Below are positions 21,288 to 64,000 of a stretch of DNA of 64,000 nt, one piece after another. The notes under the pieces are model-generated. The model was not told where the DNA came from. It searched no databases and saw only the letters and a program-made list of their open reading frames with translations. A program made the position numbers and the translations under genes. Location of the stretch: NCBI GenBank assembly GCA_003151815.1, contig PLYN01000024.1:19917-83916 (forward strand). Reading direction: 5' to 3'. Origin of the DNA: Bacteroidota bacterium. GTDB taxonomy: Bacteria > Bacteroidota > Bacteroidia > 2-12-FULL-35-15. How positions within the stretch are numbered: the first letter of the stretch is position 1; the number at the start of each line of letters is the position of its first letter.

Positions 21288-23351
21288 TTATTGAACAATA
21301 ATTTTACCTGTTTTAGTGGTATTATTTATTATCAATTGATAAAAATAAATTCCTGCCGCTCTTTCTTTTCTTTCAAAAACTATCTTCAATTCTCCTGAAG
21401 GTTGATTTTCATTTAAAAGCAGAGCAATCTCTTTACCTATTACATCAAATATTTTTAGCGATACATTCGCCTCTTCAGTTATATGAATTGCAAATGTAGT
21501 GATAGATTCAAAAGGGTTTGGGTAAACAACTATATTATTATCAAAACTATTTTCTTTTATCCCAACTACAACTTTTGGACAATAGCCGGAGCCTGTTATA
21601 GCCCAATCCATCCATCCCGCGCGATTAGCAATCCAGGTTTTTAAATCATTCACTTCTCCTTGATAATTTGCATTGGTTTGATTTTGTGGATTGGGATAAA
21701 TATAGGTTCCTAAAATTGGCCATTGAGTAAAATTGCGCTGTTGTGATTCGTTGAGTGCAGTAGCAGATGAATCTATATATGCATTCATATGGCTGTTGCT
21801 TAATACGCCCTGACGTAAATCATTCCACCTGCAATAAAGTTTATTGACAAAAGTACTATCTTGAAAAAAACGACCCCACCAACTTGGGGTTGGATGCACT
21901 GTATCTGTTTGTTGATATTGCCATAAAGTAGGATCGAATGAGTTACCGTAATTGCAATTATGCCAGGCAATGTCATAATCCCAAACCGGTCCGATGTGCA
22001 GTTTTCCGCCTTTTGTAATATTATCTTTATACAAATAAGTACTCAATCTGTACGCATCTACGTTTTTACTCAACTCATTGATAATAAAAAAATCAATGAA
22101 TGATTCTACATCAATATATTTCTGATACCCATCAGTTGGACTATTAAAAGAAGAAGAATTCATCGCTGTTTCAAAATCATCCATGTATCCTTTAATATAA
22201 GCTTGTTGCTGAGGAGTAATAGCCGTTGTTGGATAAATGTATTGATAATAAAAATGTGCATTGCCCGATGGATCTCCTGGAAACTTGGAGGACCAACCGG
22301 CTGCATCAGATCTGTCAATTTTTAAAATATACCCTCCTGTAATTGCCGGTGATGCATTATCAACAGATGTTAATTTAGCAACATTAACCCTATATTTACC
22401 CTGCTTTATTTTTTCCATCAGAGAATATACACCACGATATTCACCATTTATCACTACTTCCACAGTTTTGCAGCGGGGAGCATAATCTCCCATTTGTTGT
22501 GCAAGATCATTGGTAATCGAACCTCTGATAAGACTTTTATCCTGATATATCGCTATTAGATCCCAATCACTTTCATTGGGCATTCCAAGTAAGGAAACTT
22601 TGAGTGTGTTGCCCGTTCCATCAGTGGTTGTGAGGCTGAAGGATTTCTTTTCGAAATTTGCACTGGAGTTTCCCCTAATATGAATATCGGTTTTATCATT
22701 AAAATTATTCATAGGATCTGTCAAATTATTTCTTTGATTTACACCATTGTAAATTATTCCCATATTAACTGAAGCCTTTACATCAGTTATCTGTTGACCG
22801 TTTGTATTGATAACAACGATCGGAAGATTAGAAGAAGTAAATACCACCGGCTGAGGAGGATTAGTCCCAAAGTTAAGGCTCCAACTTATAACACTGCCAG
22901 AGTCAACAAATGCGAGATAATCATGAACGATAAGTTGCCATACACCGTTTCCGGCTTGTCCATTATTAAATCGTCCCAAATATCCCACAGGTTTAAAACT
23001 CCCGGTATAAGGTGCTTGAGATTGAGTAATTGACGTAACGGCACTATTATTAAAGCAAGTGTTTGTATAATTACTGTCTTTACAACTGGTACCTTCTGTA
23101 AGCTCAACCACTATACCACTGGGTGATTGAAGATAAATATATAATTCTTCAACTTTAGGATGTATGATATTGATACATACTTCTTCAACACCAAAAGTAT
23201 TTGTCATTTGTGCCGGACTTAAACCGGAAACTGAAATATCAAAATAAGTATCCACACCATTATTTTGAATATTTCCTCCTGTTCCTGTATATACTTGAGC
23301 TTTGATATAAAAAGAAAGCGACAAGAAAATAATAGTAAATATTTTTCTCAT
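21288..23351 (-). CDS. CotH-family kinase with N-terminal proprotein-convertase P-like domain and T9SS CTD
   Basis: Signal peptide; 'GVWQLIVHD...DSG.VISWSL' P-domain; [27 protein letters not shown] (CotH); YPNP...GIYFY..KIIVQ CTD. Confidence 0.85.
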
Positions 23352-23359
23352 GTGTTTTT

Positions 23360-23845
23360 TTAAGTAAGAGTATTTAATTTTGCATTAATGCTAGTGGTTG
23401 TGTGAGGAACGCTTCTTAGTCTTTCCTTTGGAATTAAGTCCCCTGTAATCCTGCATGTTCCATACGTTTTATTTTCTATTCGAATCAATGCATTGTTAAG
23501 ATGCTGAATAAATTTTTCTTGTCTTATGGCATGTTGCGCAGTTTCTTCTTTTGATATAACATCACTTGCATCCTCAAGGACTTTAAAAGTAGGTGAAGTG
23601 TCATTCGTGCCATTATCATCCCGAAGTGAAAGGGTACTTTTTAAAAGTTCATAGTCTATTTTCGCCTCACCAAGCTTCGCCAAAATTAATTCTTTGAATT
23701 CTCTAAGTTCCTCATCCGAAAGTCGAACTTGTGTATCCTCATTTTTAGGAGTGGAGATAGGTTGAGTTACTTTTGCTTCAACCATAATTGGCATTATCAC
23801 CATTTTGGACTCCGTCGCTTGTTTTGCCATTTTATTATTTTTCAT
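23360..23845 (-). CDS. dksA: DksA/TraR-family transcription factor (Bacteroidota type, one Cys)
   Basis: RQEKFIQHLNNALIRIENKTYGTCRITGDLIPKERLRSVPHTT. Confidence 0.8.
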   Translation of the reverse strand: MKNNKMAKQATESKMVIMPIMVEAKVTQPISTPKNEDTQVRLSDEELREFKELILAKLGEAKIDYELLKSTLSLRDDNGTNDTSPTFKVLEDASDVISKEETAQHAIRQEKFIQHLNNALIRIENKTYGTCRITGDLIPKERLRSVPHTTTSINAKLNTLT

Positions 23846-23919
23846 ATGTTTGATCTTTTATGATGTTGTTATTTTTTAAATTTAATAAGCTTAGAATAAT
23901 CGGATAAAATTTATTAATG

Positions 23920-24004
23920 CAAAGGTAATTTGACTAATAACAATGATCTTCCATTTTTCGTTTAGTTCTCTCATAAAATAGCCAAAAACTATTAAATAGT
24001 CGGT
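23920..24004 (-). promoter_or_regulatory. Island promoter P1 (dksA-cotH): three boxes at 21-bp period plus -7 box
   Basis: Minus strand ACCGACT (24004-23998), GGCTATT (23983-23977), AACGAAA (23962-23956), then TACCTTTG (23927-23920). Confidence 0.75.
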
Positions 24005-24070
24005 GGTGATATAAATTTTAAAAATCTGTCTACCAACTAGAATTATATAGTCATATAATATTAAGATTCT

Positions 24071-24265: not shown

Positions 24266-24350
24266 CAAAAATAGTATCGTTTATTTCTAATTCCTTCCTT
24301 TTTTCGTTTAGTTCGATTTAATAATAGCCAAAAAGTGTTAAACATTCGTT
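24266..24350 (-). promoter_or_regulatory. Island promoter P2
   Basis: Minus strand AACGAAT (24350-24344), GGCTATT (24329-24323), AACGAAA (24308-24302), TATTTTTG (24273-24266). Confidence 0.7.
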
Positions 24351-24394
24351 AGTAGAGTAACCCATGTAAGTCAATGCCGTAGAAGGCTTCAGGA

Positions 24395-24443
24395 AATCGA
24401 CTAAAGGGAATAAAAAATCGCTAAGAACAATAAATGAATTGCC
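24395..24443. promoter_or_regulatory. Second 21-bp-periodic triple box upstream of GH paralog 1
   Basis: AATCGAC / AATCGCT / AATTGCC starting at 24395, 24416 and 24437. Confidence 0.55.
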
Positions 24444-24482
24444 AAAAACGTTTTTAGACAAATAAACATTTAATCATAAAAA

Positions 24483-27400
24483 ATGAAAAACATAAAAAAA
24501 ATTATCAAAGTAAGTTTACTTACAGTTGGGTTTTTACTTTCTGTAAAAAGTAGTTACTCACAATTGATCTCGGATCATTTTTTTGGTGAAAACACCTGGA
24601 TGCCGGATACCATTGGTGATTACAAAGCGTGTAAAGAGCCGCCATGTATTTTATATGGTAAATTGCATAAACAATGGAGCAACATTAAAAGTAGTGGAGC
24701 ATCAATTGTTCGTTTTGGAGGTATTGCAGCTGACAAAAACATGCCAACTAATTATCAATATATAAAGATGATCGATTCCATTCGTGCAAAAGGTATGGAG
24801 CCAATTATTCAAGTTCCATTTTGTAATAATCGTTATACCGCTCAACAAGCAGCCGATATTGTTAAGTATATAAATATTATTAAAGGCAAAAAAATTAAAT
24901 ACTGGATCATTGCAAACGAACCTGATCTGAGTTATTCCTTCACTACTTCTTCACAAATAGCGCAATATTTTAAACCTTTTGCTTCAGCAATGAAAGCAGT
25001 GGACCCATCCATCCTTATTGTGGGGCCCGAATGTGCCTGGTTTAATCAAACCATTTTAACAGGTTTAACAACTCCGAATGGTCCTGATGACATTACAGGT
25101 AAAGATGCATCCGGAAATTATTACCTTGATATTATTTCTTTTCATACTTATCCTTTTGATGGAACTCAAACTAGAGCTGATGTTGTTTCAAAATTAACAG
25201 CTCCCAATTCATTAAATGAGAATTTGGCTTATCTAAACACTCGTGTAGCTAATTGTAATTCTGCGCATAATAGAACAGGTGTAGCATTACTAAAGACAGC
25301 TATTACAGAGGCGAATATAAATTGGCAAAACAACACTTCAGATAATTTAAATGGCTTAGGTGCCAATAGTTTTATTGGTGGTCAATTTATGGCGGAAATG
25401 ATGGGCATTGGAATGAAAAATAATTTAGATTTTATTAATATCTGGAGTGTAATTGAAGGAAATTCAACGGCCAGCAATATTGGTTTTATAGATGCTACTA
25501 CCAATAATAAAAAGCCATTGTATTATCATTTTAAACTTCTTGCCAACAATTTCAAAGGAAATTATTTGAACGGTATTACTAACCAGGTAAATGTTAAATC
25601 CTTTGGAAGTCAGAATGCGCAACAAACTTCAGTACTGATTTTAAATGAAGATCTTACCAATAATTATAATTTCACCGTTCGATTAGATAATTCAGCTATT
25701 TCAGGAAATGGTGGATTAAATATTAACATAAATGCAGGATTGAATAAAGAGTATTCCGGTGTTATTAGTAATCAGTCTACCACTATTTTGAAGTTTGATG
25801 CGGCAGGAAATTTAATAGAAAAAACGGAATATAAACTTTCAGGAAATGCTGATGTCAATCTTGCTCCAACAGTTACAACATTGCCTTCTGCTTTGTCAGC
25901 AATAATTATTCCGGCTGCTTCAACTACCATTTGTTCTGGAAGCAGTGTAACATTAAATGCGAATGTTGGAACAGGTTATTCATATCAGTGGAAAAAAGAT
26001 AATACTTCTTTAGCGGGTGCTACCAACTCATCATATATAGCGAATGCCGCCGGAAATTATTCGGTTAGCATAACTTCCGCAGAAATAACTACTACATCTG
26101 CAGCAACAACAATCACGTTATTGCCTGCTCCAATTGCTTCAATTACGCCTCAGGGTGCAACCTCATTTATTGCAGGTGATAGTGTTGTTTTAAATGCAAC
26201 TACAGGAACAGATTACATTTACCAATGGAAAAAAGATAATATAGGTATTAATGGTGCAACTAACACTTCTTATGTTGCAAATCAGTCAGGGGCTTACCAA
26301 ATAAAAACTACCTTGGGTATTTGCAACAATTGGTCTGCTCCACTATCAATTACTGTCTTTCCAAAAGCAACGATCACTGCTGCCGGTGCAACTAATTTTT
26401 GCTCAGGTGGAAATGTTAAGTTGAATGCAAATGTTGTTAAAGGATATGCTTATCAATGGAAAAAAGATAATGTTGCTATTGCCGGATCAACCGATTCATC
26501 TTACATTGCTATAGAATCCGGTGGTTATTCTGTTGTCGCAACTATTGCAGGCCTTACAACAACTTCAGGGATTCAAGTTATAAAAGTAACACCTTTACCT
26601 AGCGCTATTATAACAGCAGCAAGTGCAACTTCATTTGTTGAAGGTAATAGTGTAGTTCTAAATGCAACTACCGGAACAGGATATACTTATCAATGGAAAA
26701 AAGATAATGAACTTATAACAGGAGCTACCAATGGATCATATACAACTTCCATAGCCGGATCATACCAGGTAGAAATTACTTCAGAAATTTGTAAATCATT
26801 ATCCGCTTCAGTTACCGTTGCTGTTCTGCCAATAGCGGTGATCACTGCAGCAGGTAGCACGAGTTTTTGTGCCGGAGGAAACGTAAGGTTGAATGCTAAA
26901 GTAATGACAGGGTATACGTTTCAATGGAAAAAGGATAATATCGAGATTGCCGGAGCAACCGATTCATTATACATTGCTGCTGCGTCAGGAAGTTATTCGG
27001 TGGTTGTAACTAAAGGAGGCAATACAAATACTTCAACAGCAATTGCCGTTACAGCAATATCTGTTCCTGTTGCAACAATTACTCCTTTAGGCGCAACAAC
27101 AATATGTTCCGGTACTGTTGGTTTACAAGCAAATACGGGTTCCGGCTTGATCTATCAATGGAAAAAAGATAATAATGCAATAGATGGAGCTACCAATTCT
27201 TCTTATTCAGCAACTGTTACAGGATCTTATCAAATAAGAGTTACACAAGGTTCATGCACATCGTGGTCAGCACCATTAAGTGTAAGTATTCAAGGTGATA
27301 AAAATGCCACGATAACACCGGATGGACCAATCACATTTTGTTCCGGTGGTAAAGTAGTATTGTATGCTAATACTTGTTCCGACTATTTATATCAATGGAA

Positions 27401-27884
27401 GAAAAATGGAGCAAATATTAAAGGAGCAACTGCATCATCATATATTGCTACAACTTCCGGAAGCTATCAGGTAAAAATTACGTCAAGTGCATTCACAGAA
27501 TGGTCGGCACCTTTATCGGTAACGGTTAATAACTGCAAGCCTTCCGGTTCAATTGCAAGTAAAGAATTGACTTTGGATTCAACTACTGTTACATCTTTAT
27601 CGAACGAGGAAAATGTTAATAGTATTTTTGAAATTAATGTATTTCCAAATCCATCAAATGGAAAATTTACGATACAATTAAGTAATAAAAATTCCGAACA
27701 AAATAATATTGAAATTCAACTTATCAATTCTAACGGACAAGAGGTTTACCATGAAAACGGTAATTTCTTAAATGGCAAAGAAGAAATAATATTGGGAGAC
27801 AATATTACATCCGGACTTTATATCATGAGAGTGATGGTTGGAAATAACATTATCATTAAAAGAATTATAATTAATAATCTTTAA
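24483..27884 (+). CDS. Secreted clan GH-A-like glycoside hydrolase with 7 Ig-like repeats and T9SS CTD
   Basis: Signal peptide; VRFGG, WIIANEPD (acid/base), SFHTYP, ITEAN (nucleophile); seven ~80-aa 'YQWKKDN..I.GAT..SY' repeats; FPNP...GLYIM CTD. Confidence 0.8.
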   Translation: MKNIKKIIKVSLLTVGFLLSVKSSYSQLISDHFFGENTWMPDTIGDYKACKEPPCILYGKLHKQWSNIKSSGASIVRFGGIAADKNMPTNYQYIKMIDSIRAKGMEPIIQVPFCNNRYTAQQAADIVKYINIIKGKKIKYWIIANEPDLSYSFTTSSQIAQYFKPFASAMKAVDPSILIVGPECAWFNQTILTGLTTPNGPDDITGKDASGNYYLDIISFHTYPFDGTQTRADVVSKLTAPNSLNENLAYLNTRVANCNSAHNRTGVALLKTAITEANINWQNNTSDNLNGLGANSFIGGQFMAEMMGIGMKNNLDFINIWSVIEGNSTASNIGFIDATTNNKKPLYYHFKLLANNFKGNYLNGITNQVNVKSFGSQNAQQTSVLILNEDLTNNYNFTVRLDNSAISGNGGLNININAGLNKEYSGVISNQSTTILKFDAAGNLIEKTEYKLSGNADVNLAPTVTTLPSALSAIIIPAASTTICSGSSVTLNANVGTGYSYQWKKDNTSLAGATNSSYIANAAGNYSVSITSAEITTTSAATTITLLPAPIASITPQGATSFIAGDSVVLNATTGTDYIYQWKKDNIGINGATNTSYVANQSGAYQIKTTLGICNNWSAPLSITVFPKATITAAGATNFCSGGNVKLNANVVKGYAYQWKKDNVAIAGSTDSSYIAIESGGYSVVATIAGLTTTSGIQVIKVTPLPSAIITAASATSFVEGNSVVLNATTGTGYTYQWKKDNELITGATNGSYTTSIAGSYQVEITSEICKSLSASVTVAVLPIAVITAAGSTSFCAGGNVRLNAKVMTGYTFQWKKDNIEIAGATDSLYIAAASGSYSVVVTKGGNTNTSTAIAVTAISVPVATITPLGATTICSGTVGLQANTGSGLIYQWKKDNNAIDGATNSSYSATVTGSYQIRVTQGSCTSWSAPLSVSIQGDKNATITPDGPITFCSGGKVVLYANTCSDYLYQWKKNGANIKGATASSYIATTSGSYQVKITSSAFTEWSAPLSVTVNNCKPSGSIASKELTLDSTTVTSLSNEENVNSIFEINVFPNPSNGKFTIQLSNKNSEQNNIEIQLINSNGQEVYHENGNFLNGKEEIILGDNITSGLYIMRVMVGNNIIIKRIIINNL

Positions 27885-27966: not shown

Positions 27967-28374
27967 TCAATTCACGGAGAGATGAAGATCTTTATTGCAT
28001 CTTCTGGACTCATATTGTATACAGTGCTTTACCTTTTTCAATAAAGTGTCCAATTCATAAGGTTTAACAAGATAATCATCAGCACCTTGTTCCAACGCTC
28101 TGGTTAAATAATTTTTTTCAGACATTGTAGTACTAAAAATAAATGGTATTAGAGATGTTTGAGCCGTTTCCGAAAGAAATCGAAGAACTTCGTAACCATC
28201 CATTTTTGGCATTAAAATATCACAAACTATTAAATCAGGAATAAACTTGTTGGCAAGTTCAAGTCCGATTTTTCCATTATTTGTTCCAAGTATATTATAA
28301 CCTTCTATTTCGAGATATTCAGTCAAATTCTCTAGAAAATCATTGTTATGTTCAATCAGCAAAATTGTTTTCAT
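27967..28374 (-). CDS. Stand-alone response regulator receiver domain
   Basis: MKTILLIE, PDLIVCDILMPKMDG, GADDYLVKP. Start at 28374 is supported by the -7 box at 28404-28411. Confidence 0.85.
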   Translation of the reverse strand: MKTILLIEHNNDFLENLTEYLEIEGYNILGTNNGKIGLELANKFIPDLIVCDILMPKMDGYEVLRFLSETAQTSLIPFIFSTTMSEKNYLTRALEQGADDYLVKPYELDTLLKKVKHCIQYESRRCNKDLHLSVN

Positions 28375-28403
28375 AGTCGTTTGATTATTTGTGGTTGCAA
28401 TTG

Positions 28404-28488
28404 CAATGATAGTCCTGCCTCCCCTTTGCTTCATTTCTTTTTCGTTTAATTCTTATTTATAATAGCCAAAAACTGTTAAATAGTCGTT
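28404..28488 (-). promoter_or_regulatory. Island promoter P3 (receiver protein)
   Basis: Minus strand AACGACT (28488-28482), GGCTATT (28467-28461), AACGAAA (28446-28440), TATCATTG (28411-28404). Confidence 0.7.
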
Positions 28489-28531
28489 GGTGGCATAACA
28501 TTAGTAATATATGCTCGTAATACGAACAGTG

Positions 28532-28580
28532 AATCGCCGAAAGGGAGATTAAAATCGCCCAGAACAATAAACGAATCGCT
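28532..28580. promoter_or_regulatory. Second 21-bp-periodic triple box upstream of GH paralog 2
   Basis: AATCGCC / AATCGCC / AATCGCT starting at 28532, 28553 and 28574. Confidence 0.6.
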
Positions 28581-28609
28581 AATGAGTTTTTTAAACTAAA
28601 TCATATATC

Positions 28610-30337
28610 ATGAAAAACATAAAAAAAATATTTCAAGTAAGTTTACTTACAATGAGTTTGTTTTTTTCAATGAAGAGTGGTTATGCACAAGTAATTTCAA
28701 ATCATTTTTTTGGTGAAAATGCATGGATGCCTGATACCATTGGGGATTACCAAGCATGTAAAGAACCACCATGTATTTTAAATGGTAAACTGCATAAACA
28801 ATGGGGCAACATTAAAAACAGTGGAACATCCATTGTTCGTTTTGGAGGTATTGCTCCTGATAAAAATATGCCAACCAATTATCAATACATCAAGATGATT
28901 GATTCCATTCGTGCAAATGGTATGGAGCCAATAATGCAAGTACCTTTTTATAATAACCGTTATACAGCTCAACAAGCAGCGGATATTGTTAAATTTATAA
29001 ATGTTACAAAAAACGAAAAAATTAAATACTGGATCATCGCGAATGAACCCGATCTAGGTTATTCTTATACTACTTCGGCACAGATAGCTCAATATTTTAG
29101 ACCATTTGCTTCAGCTATGAAAGCGATTGATCCATCCATCTTGATTATCGGACCTGAAATATCAAGTTTTAATCAAACTATAATGAATGGTTTAACAACA
29201 CCAAATGGACCAGATGATATCACAGGAAAAGATGCATCAGGAAATTACTACCTCGATGTTATTTCTTTTCATACCTATCCTTTTAATGGAAGTCAAACCA
29301 GAGCACAAGTTGTTTCAAAATTAACGGCTCCCTATTCTTTGAATGATAATTTAATTTATCTAAACACCAGAGTAGCTGCTTGTAATATCGCTCATAATAG
29401 AACAGGAGTAGCACTTCTTAAAACAGCTATTACAGAGGCGAATATCAATTGGCAAAATAGTGCTTCTGATAATTTATCCGGCGTAGGTGCCAATAGTTTT
29501 ATTGGAGGTCAATTTATTGCTGAAATGATGGGTATTGGAATGAAGAATAGTGTAGATTTTATTAATATATGGAGTGTCGTAGAAGGAAATTCAACAGTCA
29601 GTAACGTTGGTTTTATAGATGCCACTACGTATAATAAAAAACCTTCATTTTTTCATTTTAAACTTCTTGCCGAAAATTTTAAAGGAAATTACGTGAACGG
29701 TATTACCAATCAGTCAAACGTAAAATCCTTTGGAAGTCAAGATGCTCAACAGGTTTCCGTTTTGATTTTAAACGAAGATCAAACCAATAATTATAATTTT
29801 ACTGTTCGTTTAAATAATGATAAGGCTAATGTAAACAATGCATTAATAATAAATATTAATGCAGGTATCAGCAAAGAATATGTAGGTAAAATATCAAGTC
29901 AATCTTCTGTATTGCTTATTTTTAATGCTTCAGGAGATATTATTAAGAAGTATGAATATTCACTTAATGACAATGCAATGGCTAACCTTGCGCCTACTTA
30001 TACAGAATTCGCTTCTACAGTTATAACTCCTCCTGCTCCTGCTACTGATTCTGCAGTTGTAGCAACAACTATAAATGGGATTAGCAATGATTCTGAAATG
30101 AAAGTATTTCCAAATCCTTCAAACGGAAAGTTTACCATTCAATTTAATAATGAAAATTCCGAGCTAAAGAATATTCAACTTATTAATACAATCGGACAAG
30201 AGGTTTATAGCAAAAGCTCAACCTTCATAGGTGGTAACGAAGAAATAGAATTAGAAGGCAACATAGCCGCCGGAGCTTATATATTGAGGGTGATGGACGG
30301 AAAAAATACAACAACAAAAAAAATTATCATCAATTAA
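28610..30337 (+). CDS. Paralogous clan GH-A-like glycoside hydrolase with T9SS CTD and no Ig repeats
   Basis: First ~465 aa closely match 24483..27884, including NEP and ITEAN; short P/T/A linker, then FPNP CTD. Confidence 0.8.
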   Translation: MKNIKKIFQVSLLTMSLFFSMKSGYAQVISNHFFGENAWMPDTIGDYQACKEPPCILNGKLHKQWGNIKNSGTSIVRFGGIAPDKNMPTNYQYIKMIDSIRANGMEPIMQVPFYNNRYTAQQAADIVKFINVTKNEKIKYWIIANEPDLGYSYTTSAQIAQYFRPFASAMKAIDPSILIIGPEISSFNQTIMNGLTTPNGPDDITGKDASGNYYLDVISFHTYPFNGSQTRAQVVSKLTAPYSLNDNLIYLNTRVAACNIAHNRTGVALLKTAITEANINWQNSASDNLSGVGANSFIGGQFIAEMMGIGMKNSVDFINIWSVVEGNSTVSNVGFIDATTYNKKPSFFHFKLLAENFKGNYVNGITNQSNVKSFGSQDAQQVSVLILNEDQTNNYNFTVRLNNDKANVNNALIININAGISKEYVGKISSQSSVLLIFNASGDIIKKYEYSLNDNAMANLAPTYTEFASTVITPPAPATDSAVVATTINGISNDSEMKVFPNPSNGKFTIQFNNENSELKNIQLINTIGQEVYSKSSTFIGGNEEIELEGNIAAGAYILRVMDGKNTTTKKIIIN

Positions 30338-30397: not shown

Positions 30398-30447
30398 AAA
30401 TTTATTCAATAAATTCATTCAACTATTAAATAATGATTCTCTTGTTC

Positions 30448-30511
30448 GGCTATCTGAAATGCCCTCTTAACGAATATAAAGAAAGCGGATATTGACATAT
30501 AGGTACATTTG
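30448..30511 (+). promoter_or_regulatory. Island promoter P4 (DUF6629-like gene)
   Basis: GGCTATC (30448), AACGAAT (30469), TACATTTG (30504-30511). Confidence 0.7.
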
Positions 30512-45603: not shown

Positions 45604-45610
45604 AATAAAA

Positions 45611-53550: not shown

Positions 53551-54075
53551 TTAATCTTTTATAAAAATTTCCGGAAAAAACAATTGAACTATTGAGCAGA
53601 TAACGATCATTCCTACAAAAATACCTATAGCTATTTTTCCCATTAATTTATAGTTTTTAAGTTCCTTGGCAACTTTTATCGAATTAGCCGCATTGCTGAT
53701 AACAAGTTTAAGACGGTTAAAAACATTGTCGTTTTTAATGATGTAATCATATGCTCCAAATTTTATTAGATTTACCGCTACTTCCATTTTATCCTGGGCG
53801 GAGAGCATGATCACTTTTGTTTCCGGATTTAATTCCATGATCTTTTTTAAAACTTTCAACCCATCCATTGCATTCGGGGAAGTGCTATTCAAAAAATAAT
53901 CTAGAATAATAATATCAGGATGATATTCAAAATTCTTCAAACATTCTTCGCCTGTTGAAAAAGTTCGGATGTTGATTTCGAATTTGAACATTTTTTTTAC
54001 CTGATCTTTTAAAGATGCGGTAAATAGTGGGTCGTCATCCACTATAAAAATAGAAAGAGACTCTGAAGTTTTCAT
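53551..54075 (-). CDS. Receiver domain with a C-terminal transmembrane helix
   Basis: IFIVDDD, PDIIILDY, IMLSAQ, GAYDYIIK; ends IAIGIFVGMIVICSIVQLFF. Confidence 0.85.
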   Translation of the reverse strand: MKTSESLSIFIVDDDPLFTASLKDQVKKMFKFEINIRTFSTGEECLKNFEYHPDIIILDYFLNSTSPNAMDGLKVLKKIMELNPETKVIMLSAQDKMEVAVNLIKFGAYDYIIKNDNVFNRLKLVISNAANSIKVAKELKNYKLMGKIAIGIFVGMIVICSIVQLFFPEIFIKD

Positions 54076-56672: not shown

Positions 56673-57353
56673 TTATTTGGTTTTCTTTGTAGATTTTACT
56701 TTTGAACTTTCAGTTTCTAATTTATCAGAAGCTAATATAGGTCCATTAATCTCATCAAAATAATAAGTATCAGAACTTAAAGAATTGGGGTTAAACAATA
56801 AGGTAAGCTGATCTACTTCGTTAGTAGAAGTTTCACTACCTTTTGGAATTTGAGAAAATTTAAATTGCACTACCTCCCATGCATTGCTCACTGTGGTATA
56901 AGCTTGATATTGGCTATTCGTTCCTGCTGGATATTCATTGTTACGCCCCTTGCTGCCCAATAAAATTTCTATGAGCGTTCCTACAGGTGCTGATGTATAG
57001 ATTTTCATACTTAATTGAGGAGGAATTCCTAAATACGTTGCGTAGTTATCTACAGCGGATAATTTGCCGGGGAAAGACATTTTAATATTATCGAATTTTT
57101 TTGTGCGGTTGCGGACATATAGCGCACAAGTTTTTGAGCTATTTATATCATTGAGTGCAGGGTTTATTGCAACAGTATCCAAAACACCCGATTTTTCTGC
57201 ATAATGTAAATGTTTAGCCCCTTCAAAATTATCATAACATTGCGATTGACCAACCATATAATTTGAATAAAATAAAAAAGCCATAAATACTACCGAGTAC
57301 ATTTTTATGCTGCTTTTATTTTTTGACAGACTTTCTTTTTTATTTGTTTTCAT
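56673..57353 (-). CDS. Exported single-domain protein resembling a carbohydrate-binding beta-sandwich
   Basis: N-terminal hydrophobic segment; 'NP....INSS..CA.Y.RN', 'AWE...F.F', 'LLFNP...YYFDEI'. Confidence 0.5.
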   Translation of the reverse strand: MKTNKKESLSKNKSSIKMYSVVFMAFLFYSNYMVGQSQCYDNFEGAKHLHYAEKSGVLDTVAINPALNDINSSKTCALYVRNRTKKFDNIKMSFPGKLSAVDNYATYLGIPPQLSMKIYTSAPVGTLIEILLGSKGRNNEYPAGTNSQYQAYTTVSNAWEVVQFKFSQIPKGSETSTNEVDQLTLLFNPNSLSSDTYYFDEINGPILASDKLETESSKVKSTKKTK

Positions 57354-57396: not shown

Positions 57397-57481
57397 CGAA
57401 ACTAAATAAGATCGGCAGTGTCTTCTATTAATATTCGGTGATAAGGTATTTTCAATAGCCGAAACTGGAATCCAGATAGCC
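57397..57481 (-). promoter_or_regulatory. Island promoter P9 (CBM-like gene, GH15, receivers)
   Basis: Minus strand GGCTATC (57481-57475), GGCTATT (57460-57454), ACCGAAT (57439-57433), TAGTTTCG (57404-57397). Confidence 0.8.
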
Positions 57482-57614
57482 CCGTTAGGTATCGGTCGAA
57501 TTCATTAGAAATACTTTTTTAAAACATATTGTTTTTAAAATTAATTCAAACACCCTAGAGTTTAGCGGAAATAATAGAATAAAAAAAACAATCGAGCTTT
57601 TATAAAAATAATGC

Positions 57615-57698
57615 AGCCATCAATAATTGTTTTTTGGCGATTCAAAATCCCTACCGAACGAATATCAAAAAAAACAGAACAATGTTCATCTAAATTTG
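57615..57698 (+). promoter_or_regulatory. Island promoter P10 (nucleotidyltransferase-PGI-VTC operon)
   Basis: AGCCATC (57615), GGCGATT (57636), AACGAAT (57657), TAAATTTG (57691-57698). Confidence 0.8.
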
Positions 57699-57750
57699 AT
57701 TCCGAAATAATATATCAGAAAATTAAAATAACAAATTCATTCTATAATTT

Positions 57751-58758
57751 ATGAAAATAATTGTGCCTATGGCTGGTATGGGAAAGCGAATGCGACCACA
57801 TACATTAACAACTCCCAAACCTCTTTTGCCTATTGCCGGCAAGTCAATTGTACAAAGATTAGTAGAAGATATTGCGAATGCTTGTTCTGAAAAGGTAGAT
57901 GAAATTGTATTTATTATTGGTCATTTTGGAAAAGAAACGGAAGATCATTTAAAAAAAATTGCAAATGATCTTGGAGCTATTGGAACAATTTATTATCAGG
58001 AAGAAGCCTTGGGGACAGCCCACGCTATCTTGTGTGCGAAAGAAGCATTAACAGGAAAAGTTGTAATTGCTTTTGCCGATACACTTTTTAAAGCAGATTT
58101 TAAAATAGATGATTCTCAGGAAGGAATTATATGGGTTCAAAAAATAGAAGATCCAAAAGCTTTCGGTGTTGTAAAAGTAAATGATAAAAATGTAATTACT
58201 GATTTTTTTGAAAAACCGGAACACTTTGTATCTGACTTGGCAATCATTGGTATCTATTATATAAAAGATGGAGCAAATCTTAGAAAAGAATTACAATACC
58301 TGATCGATAATAATATAAAAGACAAAGGTGAATTTCAATTAACCAATGCTTTGGAGAACATGAAAAACAAAGGGATTGAGTTTACCCCAGGAAAGGTGAT
58401 AGAATGGTTGGATTGTGGAAACAAAGACTCGACGGTTTATACCAATCAAAGGATTTTAGAATTTAACAAAGGAAAAAATTTAATTTCAAAAACACATACT
58501 TCTTTAAACTCCGTGATCATTGAGCCCTGTTACATTGGTGAAAATGTAAAATTGATCAACTCAGTTGTTGGGCCTTACGTTTCGATAGGAAATAATTCGG
58601 TCATCGAAGATTCAGTAATTAAAAACAGCATTGTTCAAACGCACGCAAAAATTTCCTTCGCTAATATTCACAACTCTATGTTTGGAAATTATGTTGATTT
58701 TAAAAACAGCAATTCTGAATTGAGTATGGGAGATTATAGTACCCAGCACAACAAATAA
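57751..58758 (+). CDS. Sugar-1-phosphate nucleotidyltransferase with hexapeptide tail
   Basis: IVPMAGMGKRMRPHT..TPKPL, QEEALGTAHA, EKP, WLDCG. Confidence 0.88.
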   Translation: MKIIVPMAGMGKRMRPHTLTTPKPLLPIAGKSIVQRLVEDIANACSEKVDEIVFIIGHFGKETEDHLKKIANDLGAIGTIYYQEEALGTAHAILCAKEALTGKVVIAFADTLFKADFKIDDSQEGIIWVQKIEDPKAFGVVKVNDKNVITDFFEKPEHFVSDLAIIGIYYIKDGANLRKELQYLIDNNIKDKGEFQLTNALENMKNKGIEFTPGKVIEWLDCGNKDSTVYTNQRILEFNKGKNLISKTHTSLNSVIIEPCYIGENVKLINSVVGPYVSIGNNSVIEDSVIKNSIVQTHAKISFANIHNSMFGNYVDFKNSNSELSMGDYSTQHNK

Positions 58759-58832
58759 TGGTTAATGATAAATAACAATTAATAAAATTTAACAGATAAT
58801 AAGTAACAAATAACAATTAACAATTATTAGAG

Positions 58833-60704
58833 ATGGACGCAGGAAATGGATTAAGCCTTGAGCTTGGAAAATATCAAAAACAAGTTAATATCCGTTTAAA
58901 AGAAATGCAAGGTCAGGACTTTGTGAAACGCCTATGGAATAAAGAGGAAGATCTTTGGATAAAAGGAAATATTCAATCCGAAATTTCTGATCTTTCAATG
59001 GGTTGGCTGAATGTTGCAAGTAAAATGTTAGACAATTTACCCTTGATAGAAAAATTTAGTAAAACGATTCAGCTCTCAGGACTTCACCACATTGTGCTTT
59101 TTGGAATGGGTGGTAGCAGTTTAACTCCTTTAGTTTTTCAAAAAACATTTATGAATAAAGAGTCTCTTGGACAAACTTTTGCGGAAGGAATGAAACTTAT
59201 CGTTTTGGATAGTACTGAACCTGAAACAATAAAAAATATTGAAAATGAAATAAACATTTCGAAAACACTTTTTATTGTGTCTAGTAAATCAGGTACTACT
59301 GCGGAAGTTATGGCCTTGTATAATTATTTTTTCAATAAAGTATTTGCTATAAAAGGAGAGAAAGCCGGAGACAATTTTATTGCTATTACAGATGAGGGAT
59401 CACCTCTTGTCGAATTGGCTAACAGTAAAAATTTTCGTGAAACGTTTATAAATTTTCGGGATATAGGAGGAAGATATTCTGCCCTTTCCTATTTTGGAAT
59501 ATTACCTGCAGTATTGATGGGTGTTAATGTTAAAGAACTTCTGGAACGGACACTGTTGATGATTAAAGCGTGCGGTTCTCAGGTTCCTGCTTCCCAAAAC
59601 CCGGGTGTAATTTTGGGTGCTGCAATTGCCGAACTTGCCAAACAAGGCCATGATAAATTAACCTATTTACTTCCTTCATCATTTTCATCATTTGGATTAT
59701 GGTTGGAACAATTATTAGCAGAAAGCACAGGTAAAAATGACAAAGGGATACTACCATTAAATGGTAATCCTTTAGCTGGTGCAAATACATATGGAAACGA
59801 TCGTTTGTTTTTTCAAATGGAATTATCGGGTAAGAAAGATGAGATTCAATCTGAAAGGCTAAAAGACCTTATTTCAATGGAATACCCTGTTATAAGTATT
59901 CAAATTAAAGATGAACTTGATCTTGGGAGGGAATTTTTCCGTTGGGAAATTGCAACTGCAACAGCGGGAGCTATTTTAGGTGTAAACCCTTTTAACCAAC
60001 CGAATGTACAGGAAAGTAAAAAATGTACGGATCGATTATTAAAAATGATCGAGGAGGATGGCAAACTTCCTGACATGACTCCAACGTTAACTGAAAATTC
60101 AGTACATTATTATTATACATCACAAAAGCAAAAAAATGCAGATGTTTCCAATTCTAACAACTATCAGGGTGGAGCAAAATCACTCATGGAAGAATTTCTA
60201 CAGCTTGCAAAACCGGGAGATTATATTTCACTCCAAGCCTACTTACCTGAAATTACAGTTGTGAATAAATATATTTTTGGGCTTCAGCAATATTTGCAAA
60301 AAAGGCTACATGTGGCAGTTACAACAGAATTTGGTCCACGATACCTTCATTCAACGGGTCAATACAATAAGGGCGGTCCTAATACAGGTATTTTTATTCA
60401 ATTTATTGGCAGTTCAGTTTCTGATCTTCCAATACCTGACCATGCGTATTCTTTTGGTCTGCTAAAAAAGGCGCAGGCAATTGGAGACATGGAAGCTCTT
60501 GTTATGCATAAAAGAAGAGTTATATTAATTGATTTGGGAGAAGATATCATTAATGGATTGAATTCATTCAAGCAAGTAATTGAAAAAGTACAGCCGGTTT
60601 TATTCAATGAAGATTCCAAGAAAAAAAACATTATAACACCGAAACCATTACTTGGCAGAAGCGATTATACACAAAGATACGATGCCGAAAGGATAGGATT
60701 ATAA
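58833..60704 (+). CDS. pgi: Glucose-6-phosphate isomerase (type seen in Tal/Pgi fusions, here without Tal)
   Basis: GMGGSSL, SSKSGTT.E, IGGRYSALS, WLEQLLAESTGK, NPFNQPNVQESK, GPRYLHSTGQ..KGG. Confidence 0.8.
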   Translation: MDAGNGLSLELGKYQKQVNIRLKEMQGQDFVKRLWNKEEDLWIKGNIQSEISDLSMGWLNVASKMLDNLPLIEKFSKTIQLSGLHHIVLFGMGGSSLTPLVFQKTFMNKESLGQTFAEGMKLIVLDSTEPETIKNIENEINISKTLFIVSSKSGTTAEVMALYNYFFNKVFAIKGEKAGDNFIAITDEGSPLVELANSKNFRETFINFRDIGGRYSALSYFGILPAVLMGVNVKELLERTLLMIKACGSQVPASQNPGVILGAAIAELAKQGHDKLTYLLPSSFSSFGLWLEQLLAESTGKNDKGILPLNGNPLAGANTYGNDRLFFQMELSGKKDEIQSERLKDLISMEYPVISIQIKDELDLGREFFRWEIATATAGAILGVNPFNQPNVQESKKCTDRLLKMIEEDGKLPDMTPTLTENSVHYYYTSQKQKNADVSNSNNYQGGAKSLMEEFLQLAKPGDYISLQAYLPEITVVNKYIFGLQQYLQKRLHVAVTTEFGPRYLHSTGQYNKGGPNTGIFIQFIGSSVSDLPIPDHAYSFGLLKKAQAIGDMEALVMHKRRVILIDLGEDIINGLNSFKQVIEKVQPVLFNEDSKKKNIITPKPLLGRSDYTQRYDAERIGL

Positions 60705-60761: not shown

Positions 60762-61184
60762 ATGAGATCAATTCATCTACAATTATTTTCAATATGTTTT
60801 CTGGTAATTTTTTCCTCTTGTAAAAAAGAGGCGGGTCAGGGGGGAACTTCTTTCATCAAAGGAAAAGTTCAAGCTCAATATTATGACAAGACTTTTTCAA
60901 CCCTAAAGGACACAGGTTATGCGCCTAATGTTGAAGTTTACATCATTTATGGAGACATGCCCTCTTATGGAAATCATCAAAAAACAAATTATGACGGTAC
61001 TTATGAGTTCCTGTATTTAAGAAATGGATCTTATAAAATTTATGCTTACTCTCAGGACACTACCGGCCTATACAAGTATCAAGTAAATATATATTCTCCT
61101 TTGTTATCCATTATTAAAAATGTTGAGATCACAAAAAAAAAGCAGACTGTTGAAGTGCCGGATATCAATGTTATCTTAAAATAA
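60762..61184 (+). CDS. Small lipoprotein
   Basis: Lipobox FSS-C; 'GG...IKGKV', 'VYIIYG', 'DGTYEF.YLR.G.YKIYAYS'. Confidence 0.7.
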   Translation: MRSIHLQLFSICFLVIFSSCKKEAGQGGTSFIKGKVQAQYYDKTFSTLKDTGYAPNVEVYIIYGDMPSYGNHQKTNYDGTYEFLYLRNGSYKIYAYSQDTTGLYKYQVNIYSPLLSIIKNVEITKKKQTVEVPDINVILK

Positions 61185-61210
61185 TTAATTAATAAATTAA
61201 TCTCATTCTT

Positions 61211-61801
61211 ATGAACTTAAAATATATTTTTTGCCTTTTCATTATCTATGTGATTGGAGATTCTTGCTTTGCTCAAAGCAAAAAAACGGTTCTTAAAAAT
61301 AAGATCAAATCAGTTATAGAGAATGTTACCCTATACGAAAATGGTAAGGAGGTAACATATAAAGAATCCTATATCCTTTATAATAAAGAAGGGCAGGTAT
61401 TGACAGAAACAAAATATAATAAGGATGGCAGCATCAAGAAACAAGAAACATTTCAGTATGCTACCGGAAGAAACATGACGGAGAAAATTATTTATCATCA
61501 GGCAGATGAGGATCAAAAAAAAGGGATTGAGAATAAAAGAACCACTTTTAAGTATAACCTTGACAATGATAAAACGGAAGAAGTAGAATACGATAGCAAC
61601 AGTAAGGTGATACAAAAAGTGATATATGCTTATAACAACAAAGGGGAAAAAAATTCTGAGACATCTTATGACGGTGAAGGAAAGATGAAGAAAAAAGTTA
61701 ATTACACCTATAATAGAAAAAGCCTGAAAACAAAACGCGAGAGTTATTTGGTAGATAATACTCTTGAATCAATTAAAACATATACTTATGAATTCTATTA
61801 G
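61211..61801 (+). CDS. Exported protein with YD-like beta-hairpin repeats
   Basis: Signal peptide; repeated 'Y.YN.KG...E..YD..G' units. Confidence 0.6.
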   Translation: MNLKYIFCLFIIYVIGDSCFAQSKKTVLKNKIKSVIENVTLYENGKEVTYKESYILYNKEGQVLTETKYNKDGSIKKQETFQYATGRNMTEKIIYHQADEDQKKGIENKRTTFKYNLDNDKTEEVEYDSNSKVIQKVIYAYNNKGEKNSETSYDGEGKMKKKVNYTYNRKSLKTKRESYLVDNTLESIKTYTYEFY

Positions 61802-62567
61802 TCCTATGCACAACGACCTTACGCCAATATTATGTTCCTTCGACCCCATCACCCTTGCAGAGATGGATCGTGTAAAACTGCTTGACCGGATGGATACAAA
61901 ATTCGTTTTCAATTATAATCAATTACCTGGCATACTCGAAAGTCTTCCAGAATACTACAAAATATTAGATGTGGACGGAGTGAAGCAAAACAGATATGAA
62001 ACGCTTTATTTTGACACCCCCGATTTTAATCTTTATCTCGATCATCATAACGGTCGTACCAATCGCTATAAAGTACGATATAGAAAATATGTAGATTCCG
62101 ATCTTGTTTTTTTTGAAGTGAAATATAAGAACAACAAAGGGCGAACACTTAAGAGTCGCGTAAAGCGGAAAAATATTCATGAAGTGATTGAAGGGAAATC
62201 AACAGAACTGATAAATGAAAAAACACCCTTTAGTCCGGAAGGCTTGCAATCGAAATTATGGGTTAACTATTCTCGTATCACACTTGTGAATAAATCCAGT
62301 ACTGAACGCTTGACTTTGGATCTCGACCTTCTTTTTAAAAAAGAAGAGCAAATGATTGGGTACGAAAATTTGGTGATTGCAGAAGTTAAACAGGAAGAGC
62401 TAGGAGCATCGCCTTTCATCGACGTGATGAAAATAAATCATGTACGCGAAGGTTCCATTAGTAAATATTGCTTCGGCGTAATCGCACTCATTGATGGCAT
62501 TAAAAAAAATAATTTCAAATCCAATTTATTAACCCTAAACAAATTATGTTATGAAACTAAAAATTAA
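61764..62567 (+). CDS. VTC-domain polyphosphate polymerase-like (CYTH) protein; likely start at 61788 or 61806
   Basis: LLDRMDTKF, Y.TLYFDT, HHNG..NRYKVR.RKY, FFEVK.K, RITLV...ERLTLD, IAEVKQ, SKYC. Confidence 0.88.
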   Translation: MNQLKHILMNSISPMHNDLTPILCSFDPITLAEMDRVKLLDRMDTKFVFNYNQLPGILESLPEYYKILDVDGVKQNRYETLYFDTPDFNLYLDHHNGRTNRYKVRYRKYVDSDLVFFEVKYKNNKGRTLKSRVKRKNIHEVIEGKSTELINEKTPFSPEGLQSKLWVNYSRITLVNKSSTERLTLDLDLLFKKEEQMIGYENLVIAEVKQEELGASPFIDVMKINHVREGSISKYCFGVIALIDGIKKNNFKSNLLTLNKLCYETKN

Positions 62568-63312
62568 ATTTTTATTTAAGATCATTTTGTTCATGTCGCT
62601 TTTATTGCCTACACCTTCATTAAAAGCGCAAGACATAGCCAGTAACACTGATACTTCTATACAGGAGGACACATCAGGTGAAAAGAAAAAAAAGAAAAAA
62701 AATGGAGATGCTGATTTCTTTGTTGTTGGCTTTGATAAACTTTCCGCCAGCTTTTTTGCCAGAATGGCTATTGATATTCTTTCGGTATTGATCTTAATTC
62801 GTTTAATCTATTATCCCATTTACCATAAGAAGGATTTCTTTTTTACCTTCTTTCTTTTCAACATCGTTATTTTCGTTATTACCTATTTGCTGAATAAAGT
62901 TGACCTGTCCATGGGCGCAGCATTTGGCTTGTTTGCGGTATTTTCTTTACTCAGGTATCGCACTGAAAATATTTCGGCAAAAGATATGACCTATTTGTTT
63001 GTAGTAATTGCGCTCGGTCTGATAAGCGCTGTAAATAAAGGAACATTTATTGAAACGTCAATCATCAATGGAATTATACTCATTATTGCTTATACGCTGG
63101 ATGCTAATCTGCTCATCAAAAATGAAAATACCAAGAGAATACAATATGAAAACATTGAACTTGTCAGACCTGAAAATAGTGCGCTGCTATTAGATGACCT
63201 CAGAAAAAGAACAGGATTGAATATTCATAAAATAAGTATAGATGATATCAGTTTTTTGCGCGATACCGCCACAATCACTGTATACTACTTTGATCGCGAT
63301 ATAATTAAATAA
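62551..63312 (+). CDS. DUF4956 membrane protein
   Basis: GAAFGLFAVFSLLRYRT...KDMTYLF; DL..RTGL.I; immediately downstream of the VTC gene. Confidence 0.85.
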   Translation: MKLKIKFLFKIILFMSLLLPTPSLKAQDIASNTDTSIQEDTSGEKKKKKKNGDADFFVVGFDKLSASFFARMAIDILSVLILIRLIYYPIYHKKDFFFTFFLFNIVIFVITYLLNKVDLSMGAAFGLFAVFSLLRYRTENISAKDMTYLFVVIALGLISAVNKGTFIETSIINGIILIIAYTLDANLLIKNENTKRIQYENIELVRPENSALLLDDLRKRTGLNIHKISIDDISFLRDTATITVYYFDRDIIK

Positions 63313-63324
63313 CCAATCTTTGTA

Positions 63325-64000
63325 ATGATATTTCCGGCAAGCCTTAAGATTGTAAATAGGAATAGGCTAACTGCCATCATGTTCTTCTTCATTATTCAAT
63401 CCGCTAGTTCGCAGGTGAATGATGCGGGCTTATGGGAAAACATTTATCTAGATAAAAAAATTACGCCAAAGTGGTCACTTCATCTAAATCAACAAGGTCG
63501 TGTGGATCAAAATATAACACGCTTCCATTATGTCTACGGTGATTTTGGTATTACTTATAAATGGAACAAACATATTCACATAATGTGTGATTATGTTTTG
63601 ATAGAAAAAAAAAGGCTGAATGATTTTTGGAGTACACTTCACCAAGGCTATGTGGCACTTGTACTGAAACAGAAAATTGCTTCATTCACAATTTCTGATC
63701 GTATTATGGCTCAAGTTCAATACTCTGATATTTATTCCAGCAAATTTGGAATGATACCCGATTACAAACTGAGAAATAAAACAATGCTTAAATACAATAG
63801 TATTAGCCGTTTCACTTATTATATCGCATTAGAAATTTATTACAAGATTAATAATACATATTATAAATCTGATTATCCGCTAGGTAATCGGTTAGACAGG
63901 ATGCGCTATTTTGTTGGTGCTTTTTATCAGTTAAACAAAAGGAGCAGTATCGAATTGTATTATTTATATGAGAATAATTTTAATTCAAATAATCCTCCCA
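63325..64000 (+). CDS. DUF2490-like outer-membrane beta-barrel (runs off the window end)
   Basis: Hand translation from ATG 63325: MIFPASLKIVNRNRLTAIMFFFIIQSASSQVNDAGLWENIYLDKKITPKWSLHLNQQGR; appears open to 64000. Confidence 0.7.
   Translation, partial: MIFPASLKIVNRNRLTAIMFFFIIQSASSQVNDAGLWENIYLDKKITPKWSLHLNQQGRVDQNITRFHYVYGDFGITYKWNKHIHIMCDYVLIEKKRLNDFWSTLHQGYVALVLKQKIASFTISDRIMAQVQYSDIYSSKFGMIPDYKLRNKTMLKYNSISRFTYYIALEIYYKINNTYYKSDYPLGNRLDRMRYFVGAFYQLNKRSSIELYYLYENNFNSNNPP

Follow-up and report, generated by a model that had tools for sequence, protein, structure and literature searches.

A motif-marked gene island in a Bacteroidota genome as the proposed core of a LytTR-activated general-stress regulon with glucan and matrix outputs

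Positions 21288 to 64000 of a 64,000-nucleotide stretch of contig PLYN01000024.1 (assembly GCA_003151815.1; the whole stretch is called the window below) hold an island of genes for glucan chemistry, secreted surface proteins and signaling, and many of these genes share an array of direct repeats in their promoters, here called motif A. We propose, at a probability of about 0.6, that this block is the clustered core of a general-stress or stationary-phase regulon that is activated by a LytTR-type response regulator and has glucan storage and matrix outputs. From their promoter sequences, the genes of the block very probably share one regulon; motif A is probably bound by a LytTR-type response regulator; and a general-stress role is favored, somewhat less firmly, by the genes that the motif leads in relatives. 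The original prediction, made from the window, had described one co-regulated block of more than 42 kb for carbon storage and surface remodeling. The genome assembly measures 2.5 Mb and is 76.6% complete, and its assignment to the Bacteroidota fits both the type IX secretion system (T9SS) tails of its proteins and the titles of its closest relatives.

Results

Geometry and distribution of motif A

Motif A consists of three direct repeats with a 21-bp period. The distance from these to the housekeeping -7 box below them is fixed, and there is no -33 box. With the -7 box placed at -12 to -5, the position used in the available text of an earlier study (PMC9723704), the boxes center near -86, -65 and -44, and about 32 bp separate the last of them from the -7 box. 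A loose regular expression matched the window nine times, always between genes, always past 23.9 kb and always with one spacing. A scoring matrix was trained on 87 sites from relatives, which had been picked by a matrix from this genome, so that its central columns are not independent; it places 11 sites in the window at a score of at least 15 and a twelfth at 14.1, and positions 1 to 21287 hold no site at 12 or above. Across the whole genome, 26 sites fall within 99.6 kb (contig C13, which carries the window, from 41.2 kb onward, all of contig C40 and the first 14 kb of contig C20), against one in the other 2.43 Mb. The upstream motif that the original prediction had noticed is therefore real.

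The conserved columns extend to the -7 box itself. Counted from the first G of the motif, columns +60 and +61 each carry T in 24 of 25 sites of this genome. The matrix that chose the relatives' sites spanned only -12 to +29, and outside that span the 87 sites show both the -7 box (T in 79, T in 70 and G in 44) and the third repeat at -22 to -17. A -7-like box at +54 to +57 is present in 47 of the 87, against a mean of 0.5 at control offsets, and TTTG occurs in the -33 zone of only four, the same as in the control. Operators of LytTR regulators typically consist of repeats of 9 to 11 nucleotides separated by spacers of 11 to 13 (PMC4847170, in the text available), a description that the three boxes and their 21-bp period fit. 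The proximal box near -44 and the lack of a -33 TTTG likewise fit activation from upstream of -35, where RcoM and CoxC, with triple repeats of their own, are reported to bind in the accessible portion of a further paper (PMC11347149). Judged by this layout, motif A is an activator array on housekeeping promoters, not a sigma promoter. It does resemble a sigma -35/-10 pair, a candidate ruled out by the fixed -7 box below it; six Sigma70_r2 genes are present in the genome, none of them within the island stretches.

About nine of 27 sites lead signaling genes, namely, kinases, an Hpt protein, receivers and one copy of the LytTR gene (score 25.2), and the circuit therefore likely amplifies itself by positive feedback.

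Conservation in relatives

The original prediction proposed a check of synteny across Bacteroidota, and the genes proved not to be scattered in relatives. Within the regions fetched from nine relatives, in which we mapped the island, the glucan core is syntenic, motif included. GH15, its neighboring binding-module gene, GT4, the GH39-like glycosidase and GH26 are present in all nine mapped islands, GH57 and CotH in eight, PGI in six, DksA, the sugar kinase and GT2 in four each, and VTC in one. Motif A stands upstream of GT4, in the same orientation, in eight of nine close orthologues, upstream of the GH15 unit in 15 of the 18 relatives with upstream DNA, and before island-type CotH at all six relatives' loci. 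Control loci are without it: 8/8 non-island CotH, 7/7 out-of-genus GH15 and the single distant GT4.

The order comprises one genus with 68 genomes, and 21 of these carry GH15 (20 of 67 without the unpublished genome G364); in a sample of 300 genomes from the phylum, only five hold GH15 at an E value of 1e-100 or lower, with 41 to 57% identity. Island distribution within the genus is patchy. On a TsaD tree of the 30 closest genomes, six gains or losses are required, at least three of them forced, and the GH15 tree agrees with it at the tips. A strict motif pattern finds 4 to 13 matches in 19 of the 21 carriers (18 of 20 without G364), none in 41 of 47 noncarriers and one or two in the other six; the reversed control gives at most one. 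The two strongest noncarrier sites are near a LytTR-kinase-Hpt cluster. Clear evidence spans this order and one genome outside it, G040 from another family, in which a divergent pair of sites stands before the binding module and STAS-GT2; the close relatives among the matches listed are all uncultured.

Association with LytTR regulators

LytTR is the only DNA-binding protein seen in or beside all nine mapped islands, and its receiver domain carries the DD, D, T and K motifs. Relatives' LytTR loci of 2 to 4 kb hold a motif A site in nine of 19 cases. Loci of up to 20 kb hold one in 20 of 30 (40 matches in 427 kb, against none in five Markov controls), a set that may overlap the genomes of the order. 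Every one of the 21 GH15 carriers has this LytTR at an E value of 1e-85 or lower, and among the 68 genomes GH15 occurs in none of the 43 that lack it at that threshold. The LytTR homologue of G040 likewise lies in a kinase-Hpt-receiver cluster. No close LytTR relative was found on plasmids, where the best among the matches listed is 40% identical. Covariation between the LytTR loop and the boxes (H-I-T with GGCTAT, H-Y-T with AGCCAT) was considered and proved weak, as H-S-T proteins also go with GGCTAT.

Regulon outputs and a second motif

We hand-picked 40 stretches at sites mostly outside the mapped islands and scanned 48 of 80 candidate open reading frames (ORFs). Proteins with T9SS tails form the largest target class (nine stretches), seven stretches lead stress families (CsbD, YtxH, YflT, Usp, YceI, AhpC, Dps-like, DUF326) and five include receivers; a UbiA-type III polyketide synthase unit is led twice, and VTC and a nucleotidyltransferase-PGI pair once each. 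Among 24 metagenome stretches, some of them from near-identical organisms, four lead CsbD, five the binding module of the GH15 unit and two GT4. In Bacillus subtilis, gtaB encodes UDP-glucose pyrophosphorylase, pgcA a phosphoglucomutase and ydaJKLMN an exopolysaccharide system. All of these stand beside csbD, dps, yflT and ytxH in the core list of the SigB regulon, as given in the available text of PMC7824861. The protective genes behind motif A in relatives thus bear the signature of a general stress response, which is weaker in this genome. A dedicated stress sigma factor does not fit these promoters, which keep their -7 box.

A second array, motif B, is built of TGTAA boxes with the same 21-bp period above a -7 box and has 17 sites in the genome, none in the window (C13:98289 and 98991; C20:1250, 6939 and 7582; C42:9098-18863; and contigs C45, C14, C50 and C60). 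It leads units with CsbD, three BON genes, nitric oxide reductase, ferritin, superoxide dismutase (SOD) and PPK2. Motif B is present at 17 of 29 loci of an AraC homologue conserved across the class and likely marks a widespread AraC regulon. The island AraC gene carries both arrays, and the two regulons may therefore form tiers.

These results support the proposed starvation program in part. The stress reading stands on the motif-led CsbD, YtxH, YflT, Usp, YceI, AhpC and Dps genes of relatives, and not on the DksA, Dps and VTC genes named at the outset, which are only accessory. For carbon storage and surface remodeling, the weight moves to the conserved core, which consists of glucan chemistry, secreted glycosidases, CotH and signaling and of which DksA and VTC form no regular part. 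Polyphosphate storage found no support: VTC is the only gene for it behind motif A, PPK2 lies behind motif B, and no polyphosphate kinase was found in the regulon, PPK1 lying elsewhere than the island in four relatives.

Glucan enzymes

GH15 has no signal peptide and matches the solved structure 1lf6 (E value of 3e-144); GH57 has no solved relative at an E value of 0.001, and CotH has none. The catalytic domain of GH26 is closest among solved structures to Clostridium endoglucanase H (5e-27), a lichenase, and GH26 has catalytic-type glutamates, as does the GH39-like enzyme. Each of the genes for the sugar kinase, PGM and the nucleotidyltransferase has another copy elsewhere in the genome (on contig C34 for kinase and PGM), which would suit an inducible increase in the supply of NDP-glucose. 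The classical GlgC-GlgA-GlgB pathway, with a GT5 synthase and a GH13 branching enzyme, does not fit the enzymes found in this 76.6% complete genome.

The island GT2 is BcsA-like only (E value of 2e-32; motifs DD151, DAD206, SED369 and QHQRY407, with Y for W) and is predicted to be a beta-glucan synthase. No PilZ or BcsB match was found in the gene or its neighbors, and it scores 237 against the TIGR03030 cut-off of 699. In one relative, G031 (L141:8358-16368, contig C21), a GH2-like protein, a sulfatase and a 1,301-residue GT2-GH2 fusion lie beside GT4-GH57, in a mapped region without a BcsA-like GT2.

Extent of the island

The co-regulated block of the original prediction is well supported as such and needs some correction: it continues 16.5 kb beyond the window to the contig end, and seven of the 32 window genes lack a site of their own. 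The regulatory genes sit in the added part: a pair of receiver-LytTR genes that are 75% identical, a PAS hybrid kinase with Hpt and the AraC gene. A CHU_C Ig protein, a hemerythrin gene and a STAS-GT2 unit lie there as well. The hemerythrin-domain protein (L001:6122-6820), inside the island, has a twin-arginine-like leader. The AraC gene itself (L001:16719-17311, equal to C13:99218-99810) is split by an NN scaffold gap and a short duplication, likely an assembly artifact; its homologues in relatives are open frames of about 200 codons.

Contig C40 (26 kb) carries another four kinases together with a CheB-CheR fusion, an ice-binding protein and a further CotH. The ice-binding protein (DUF3494; L002:110-2053) is T9SS-secreted and stands directly behind a motif A site. 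Where C40 ends, next to the second CotH unit, a small ORF (C40:26106-26264) resembles a serine-recombinase zinc-ribbon fragment. An "RsbQ" label for a hydrolase of C40 was unconfirmed, its best NCBIfam match being PcaD-like and below cut-off. On C20, a lipoprotein gene behind motif A (L004:2177-2624) has an in-frame stop shortly after its signal sequence.

These contigs could not be joined: C13 matches C40 at its end through a repeat only, and the sole match between C40 and C20 is a short end sequence common to many contig ends. This sequence of about 24 bases recurs at the ends of C20, C40, C29, C16, C3, C36, C24 and C49 and is likely an assembly or library artifact. The composition of the island is not foreign (G+C content of 33 to 35% against 34.6% for the genome; third-position G+C of 0.256 and 0.281 against 0.283). 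Left of position 21288 lie the housekeeping genes ribBA, tamB and tsaD, a flank found beside the island in none of the nine mapped relatives. Also left of the island, without motif A, a block of GT4, FkbM methyltransferase, flippase, Wzz and Wzy_C genes stands with a SpoIIE-type phosphatase (5687-13131).

Gene content of the window

Pfam and NCBIfam profile scans found every family named in the original prediction at its place. As we read the gaps and hairpins, 23 of the 32 genes fall in motif-A-led units, the GH39-like pair has reversed arrays in front, and GH26, the sugar kinase, PGM, SRPBCC, FG-GAP and two SBBP genes make up the seven without a site. Nine window proteins have T9SS tails, and four receivers stand alone.

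The leftmost unit runs on the minus strand from a motif A promoter, with three boxes and the -7 box (23920..24007; score of 29.4), through a DksA/TraR-like protein below the NCBIfam DksA cut-off (23360..23845) to a CotH-family kinase with a P-domain, signal peptide and T9SS tail (21288..23351), whose C40 paralogue (61%) is also motif-A-led. Two minus-strand arrays (24266..24446; 32.1 and 14.1) are reversed relative to the next gene, a T9SS-secreted GH39-like glycosidase of clan GH-A with tandem Ig repeats (24483..27884, plus strand), whose orthologue in relatives is likewise preceded by reversed arrays. The stand-alone receiver that follows (27967..28434, minus) likely starts at Met21, because the -7 box falls within its called 5' end. 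Two further minus-strand arrays (28404..28583; 29.6 and 27.8) separate it from the core GH39-like gene (28610..30337, plus), which encodes a T9SS-secreted enzyme with NE and E catalytic-type motifs and 76% identity over 492 residues to the GH39-like enzyme encoded at 24483..27884.

The next units lie on the plus strand. A promoter at 30424..30511 (32.7) leads a DUF6629 membrane protein (30529..31224), seen in none of the nine mapped islands, and one at 31295..31382 (48.5) leads GT4, a cytoplasmic candidate alpha-glucan synthase (31437..32735), cytoplasmic GH57 (32741..34045), which is core and missing from one island whose contig stops inside GT4, and an accessory T9SS cargo protein with PKD-like repeats (34056..36866). 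A third (36971..37058; 40.5) precedes a small T9SS-tail protein (37078-37464). T9SS-secreted GH26 (37667..40450), homologous to its counterparts at 32 to 39%, follows a long hairpin. The BadF-type sugar kinase (40624-41484), which directly follows GT4-GH57 in three relatives, and PGM/PMM (41490-42914) together span 40624..42914. SRPBCC (43030-43470), the FG-GAP T9SS protein and the two SBBP beta-propeller T9SS proteins occupy the minus strand (43030..49285); unlike here, SBBP genes are motif-A-led in several relatives. The long intergenic hairpins between T9SS cargo genes (37501-37571, 40484-40554, 45503-45610 and 47152-47254, with a remnant at 36867-36930) include three or four of one family, and no Rfam family matched positions 21000-53400, hairpins included. 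An unlisted minus-strand ORF (49369-49575) encodes a 68-residue two-helix membrane protein without an NCBIfam match.

A divergent promoter pair (51510..51772; 44.3 on the minus and 32.3 on the plus strand) leads a Cbp1-family lipoprotein adhesin (NF052320, over cut-off) with a secreted all-helical protein on one side (49810..51465, minus), and a degenerate Dps-like protein (51858-52415) with a stand-alone receiver on the other (51858..53036, plus). The helical protein (50773-51465) has 3,188 relatives at an E value of 1e-30 or lower, cultured Flavobacterium among them, and its structure model (pLDDT of 61) gave no fold match. The Dps-like protein has lost several ferroxidase-site residues, which an intact paralogue on C20 keeps.

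A second divergent pair (57397..57699; 50.5 on the minus and 46.1 on the plus strand) separates the GH15 and nucleotidyltransferase units. The former, on the minus strand, comprises a secreted core protein that is likely a carbohydrate-binding module, from an Atlas lead only (56673..57353), the GH15 glucoamylase (54104..56596; TIGR01535, over cut-off), which is the best island marker, and two closing receiver genes, one with a C-terminal membrane anchor (53160..54075). The latter, on the plus strand, starts with the sugar-phosphate nucleotidyltransferase (57751-58758) and PGI (58833-60704; the pair spans 57751..60704), which keep motif A even outside the island in G031. The accessory genes after them (60762..64000, plus) encode a lipoprotein, a secreted protein, VTC (61764-62567), DUF4956 (62551-63312) and DUF2490, which runs from 63325 past the window end.

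Discussion

The LytTR-activated stress regulon that we propose would work as follows. Phosphate would travel from cytoplasmic PAS/GAF hybrid kinases by way of an Hpt protein to the receiver of LytTR, which, once phosphorylated, would recruit sigma-A polymerase to the motif A promoters. All three kinases screened appear soluble, one of them with a single hydrophobic stretch, and the island kinases carry PAS, receiver or Hpt domains; the input is therefore likely cytoplasmic and may be redox, oxygen or energy. The sugar kinase, PGI, PGM and nucleotidyltransferase would activate glucose for an intracellular alpha-glucan cycle (GT4, GH57 and GH15) and also supply the GT2 beta-glucan synthase. T9SS-secreted glycosidases, binding modules, propeller proteins and CotH would build or remodel a surface matrix, and a variable set of protective proteins would form the third output.

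A number of observations weigh against this proposal. Ten of the 30 longer LytTR loci lack a site, and four genomes have LytTR at an E value of 1e-85 or lower and no strict site: G362 (98% complete), G366 (100%), G016 (72%) and G032 (98%). In G362, one good loose match lies 2.4 kb from its LytTR gene, and G366 has none; the loose pattern gave no more matches than its control, and we used it only for positions in islands. The carriers G367 and G372 have no strict match, only matrix or loose sites within their islands. G040 has strong sites, yet its closest LytTR is only 40% identical. Against a LytTR consensus, the proximal box scores 6.9 of 9 (control maximum of 6.08), but the other two, at 5.3 and 5.15, do not exceed the control, and AraC sites share the 21-bp period. 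The genomes with and without the island are kin, and their counts are not independent. Among the outputs, the CsbD, BON, SOD, ferritin and PPK2 genes of this genome are behind motif B, not motif A; GT4 falls below every glycogen-synthase NCBIfam cut-off, and the role of such GT4s is called unproven in the available text of a review (PMC11046441); no GH13 or GDE_C debranching enzyme was matched in this 76.6% complete genome; and GT2 is present in only four of the nine mapped islands.

Several of these points feed other explanations. It is possible, though we doubt it, that the regulon is a surface-matrix program (biofilm or capsule) answering a single cue such as oxygen or redox, with stress genes as occasional recruits and broad protection left to the AraC-linked regulon. 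The conserved core is indeed glycan enzymes and T9SS cargo rather than stress proteins, T9SS proteins head the target classes, the protective genes just listed sit behind motif B, and CotH, polyphosphate polymerase and DUF4956 accompany pel exopolysaccharide operons in the available text of 10.1101/768473. However, several relatives and metagenome contigs have units of CsbD, YflT-YtxH, Usp, YceI, AhpC and Dps directly behind motif A, and here it also stands upstream of the AraC gene. That last site opens the question of whether a factor other than LytTR (the island AraC, an alternative sigma factor or a gene absent from the assembly) reads a regulon that is itself real, which we consider unlikely. 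The site recurs in a near-identical metagenome contig, where the AraC gene again has it upstream, LytTR-positive genomes without sites exist, and the assembly is incomplete. Yet 29 relatives' AraC loci have no motif A site at 15 or above (two are weak, at 14.1 and 10.0), 17 of them hold motif B, and complete genomes such as G043 have AraC (86% identity) and no site; as the sites do not travel with the AraC gene, we dropped it as the regulator of motif A. The fixed -7 box speaks against a sigma promoter, and no DNA-binding protein other than LytTR was seen to accompany all nine mapped islands.

Type III polyketide synthases make the cyst lipids of Azotobacter, and a motif-A-led unit of UbiA and such a synthase in G031 and G368 (L307 and L327) recalls them. 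By analogy with AlgR, a LytTR regulator that Azotobacter needs for encystment and that acts via algC (PMC4064291, in the text available), one might envisage differentiation into a desiccation-resistant cyst with a coat of phosphorylated protein and glucan and with stored glycogen. Two secreted CotH kinases and the ice-binding protein lie behind motif A, and the feedback wiring would suit a committed switch. We regard this as quite unlikely: CotH homologues occur in 24 of 36 genomes of the genus, mostly outside islands, and all eight such loci checked are without motif A; the type III synthase was not found in this incomplete genome; and the supposed microcysts of Chitinophaga pinensis proved nondormant, according to the accessible part of PMC13070061. 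Scavenging of outside glucans, in which secreted glycosidases free sugars for metabolism by way of the kinase, PGI and PGM, is improbable. GH26 and the GH39-like enzyme keep their catalytic-type glutamates and a sugar kinase is at hand, but the island ORFs scanned yielded no SusC or SusD family, GH15 lacks a signal peptide, and two synthases and the nucleotidyltransferase share motif A. That motif A is a spread repeat or duplication remnant without regulatory meaning is scarcely credible; its three leftmost copies do lie in a locally duplicated segment (families D5 and D10), but only the boxes and the -7 box are conserved, in fixed phase, before orthologues across the genus and in another family.

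The LytTR-activated stress regulon has partial counterparts among known systems. Its output list is like that of the B. subtilis SigB regulon (PMC7824861, in the text available), but, in contrast to SigB, RpoS and EcfG, a response regulator likely reads its sites, which stand above a -7 box of the housekeeping type, and its outputs are dominated by T9SS cargo. In AlgZ/AlgR of Pseudomonas and Azotobacter, too, a LytTR regulator activates sugar-precursor and exopolysaccharide genes; as the available text of PMC4064291 describes it, algD has three AlgR sites, of which the proximal one, at -45, is in the opposite orientation, and A. vinelandii requires AlgR for encystment. Those sites are far apart, however, whereas the island sites are phased at 21 bp, the partner kinases here are cytoplasmic hybrids with Hpt, and GT2 and GT4 take the place of the alginate genes. 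The operators of RcoM and CoxC are alike in their three imperfect direct repeats, with spacers of 12 to 13 bp, and in the binding of RcoM-type regulators upstream of -35 (PMC11347149, same portion), but these proteins sense CO as one-component regulators, serve a single target cluster and have a different repeat sequence, whereas the receiver-LytTR protein here has at least 27 sites. Archaeal-type glycogen clusters likewise place GT4 beside a GH57 amylase and a catabolic GH15 glucoamylase, and loss of GH57 in Sulfolobus lowers glycogen, in what PMC11046441 makes available; no GH133-type debranching enzyme or GH13 was found here, and GT4 activity is unproven in both. Gram-positive pel operons of non-spore-formers set CotH, a VTC-type polymerase and DUF4956 beside a synthase-dependent exopolysaccharide (10.1101/768473, likewise in part), whereas in the island CotH is secreted by T9SS and separated from VTC by 38 kb, DUF2490 stands in place of DUF4832, and the synthase resembles BcsA.

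In our literature searches, mostly without subscription papers, we found no description of this regulon, of a Bacteroidota equivalent or of CotH with T9SS. The parts are of known kinds; what appears to be new is that a response regulator acting on housekeeping promoters wires them together. A bolder extension by analogy, in which a self-amplifying cytoplasmic phosphorelay with LytTR at its end is the general-stress master circuit of free-living Bacteroidota, switching cells to a resistant state with glycogen stores and a coat of beta-glucan and phosphoprotein, an Azotobacter-like cyst made with T9SS cargo, and with an AraC regulon as a second tier, we think unlikely to hold as a whole. We know of no general stress response that is not run by a dedicated sigma factor. 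If the LytTR reading is true, these bacteria would run one without a dedicated stress sigma factor. The finding puts forward a candidate regulator together with the site, the input kinases and dozens of targets that belong to it, and it ties a predicted GT4-GH57-GH15 glucan cycle, a BcsA-like synthase without PilZ and T9SS-secreted CotH kinases to one condition.

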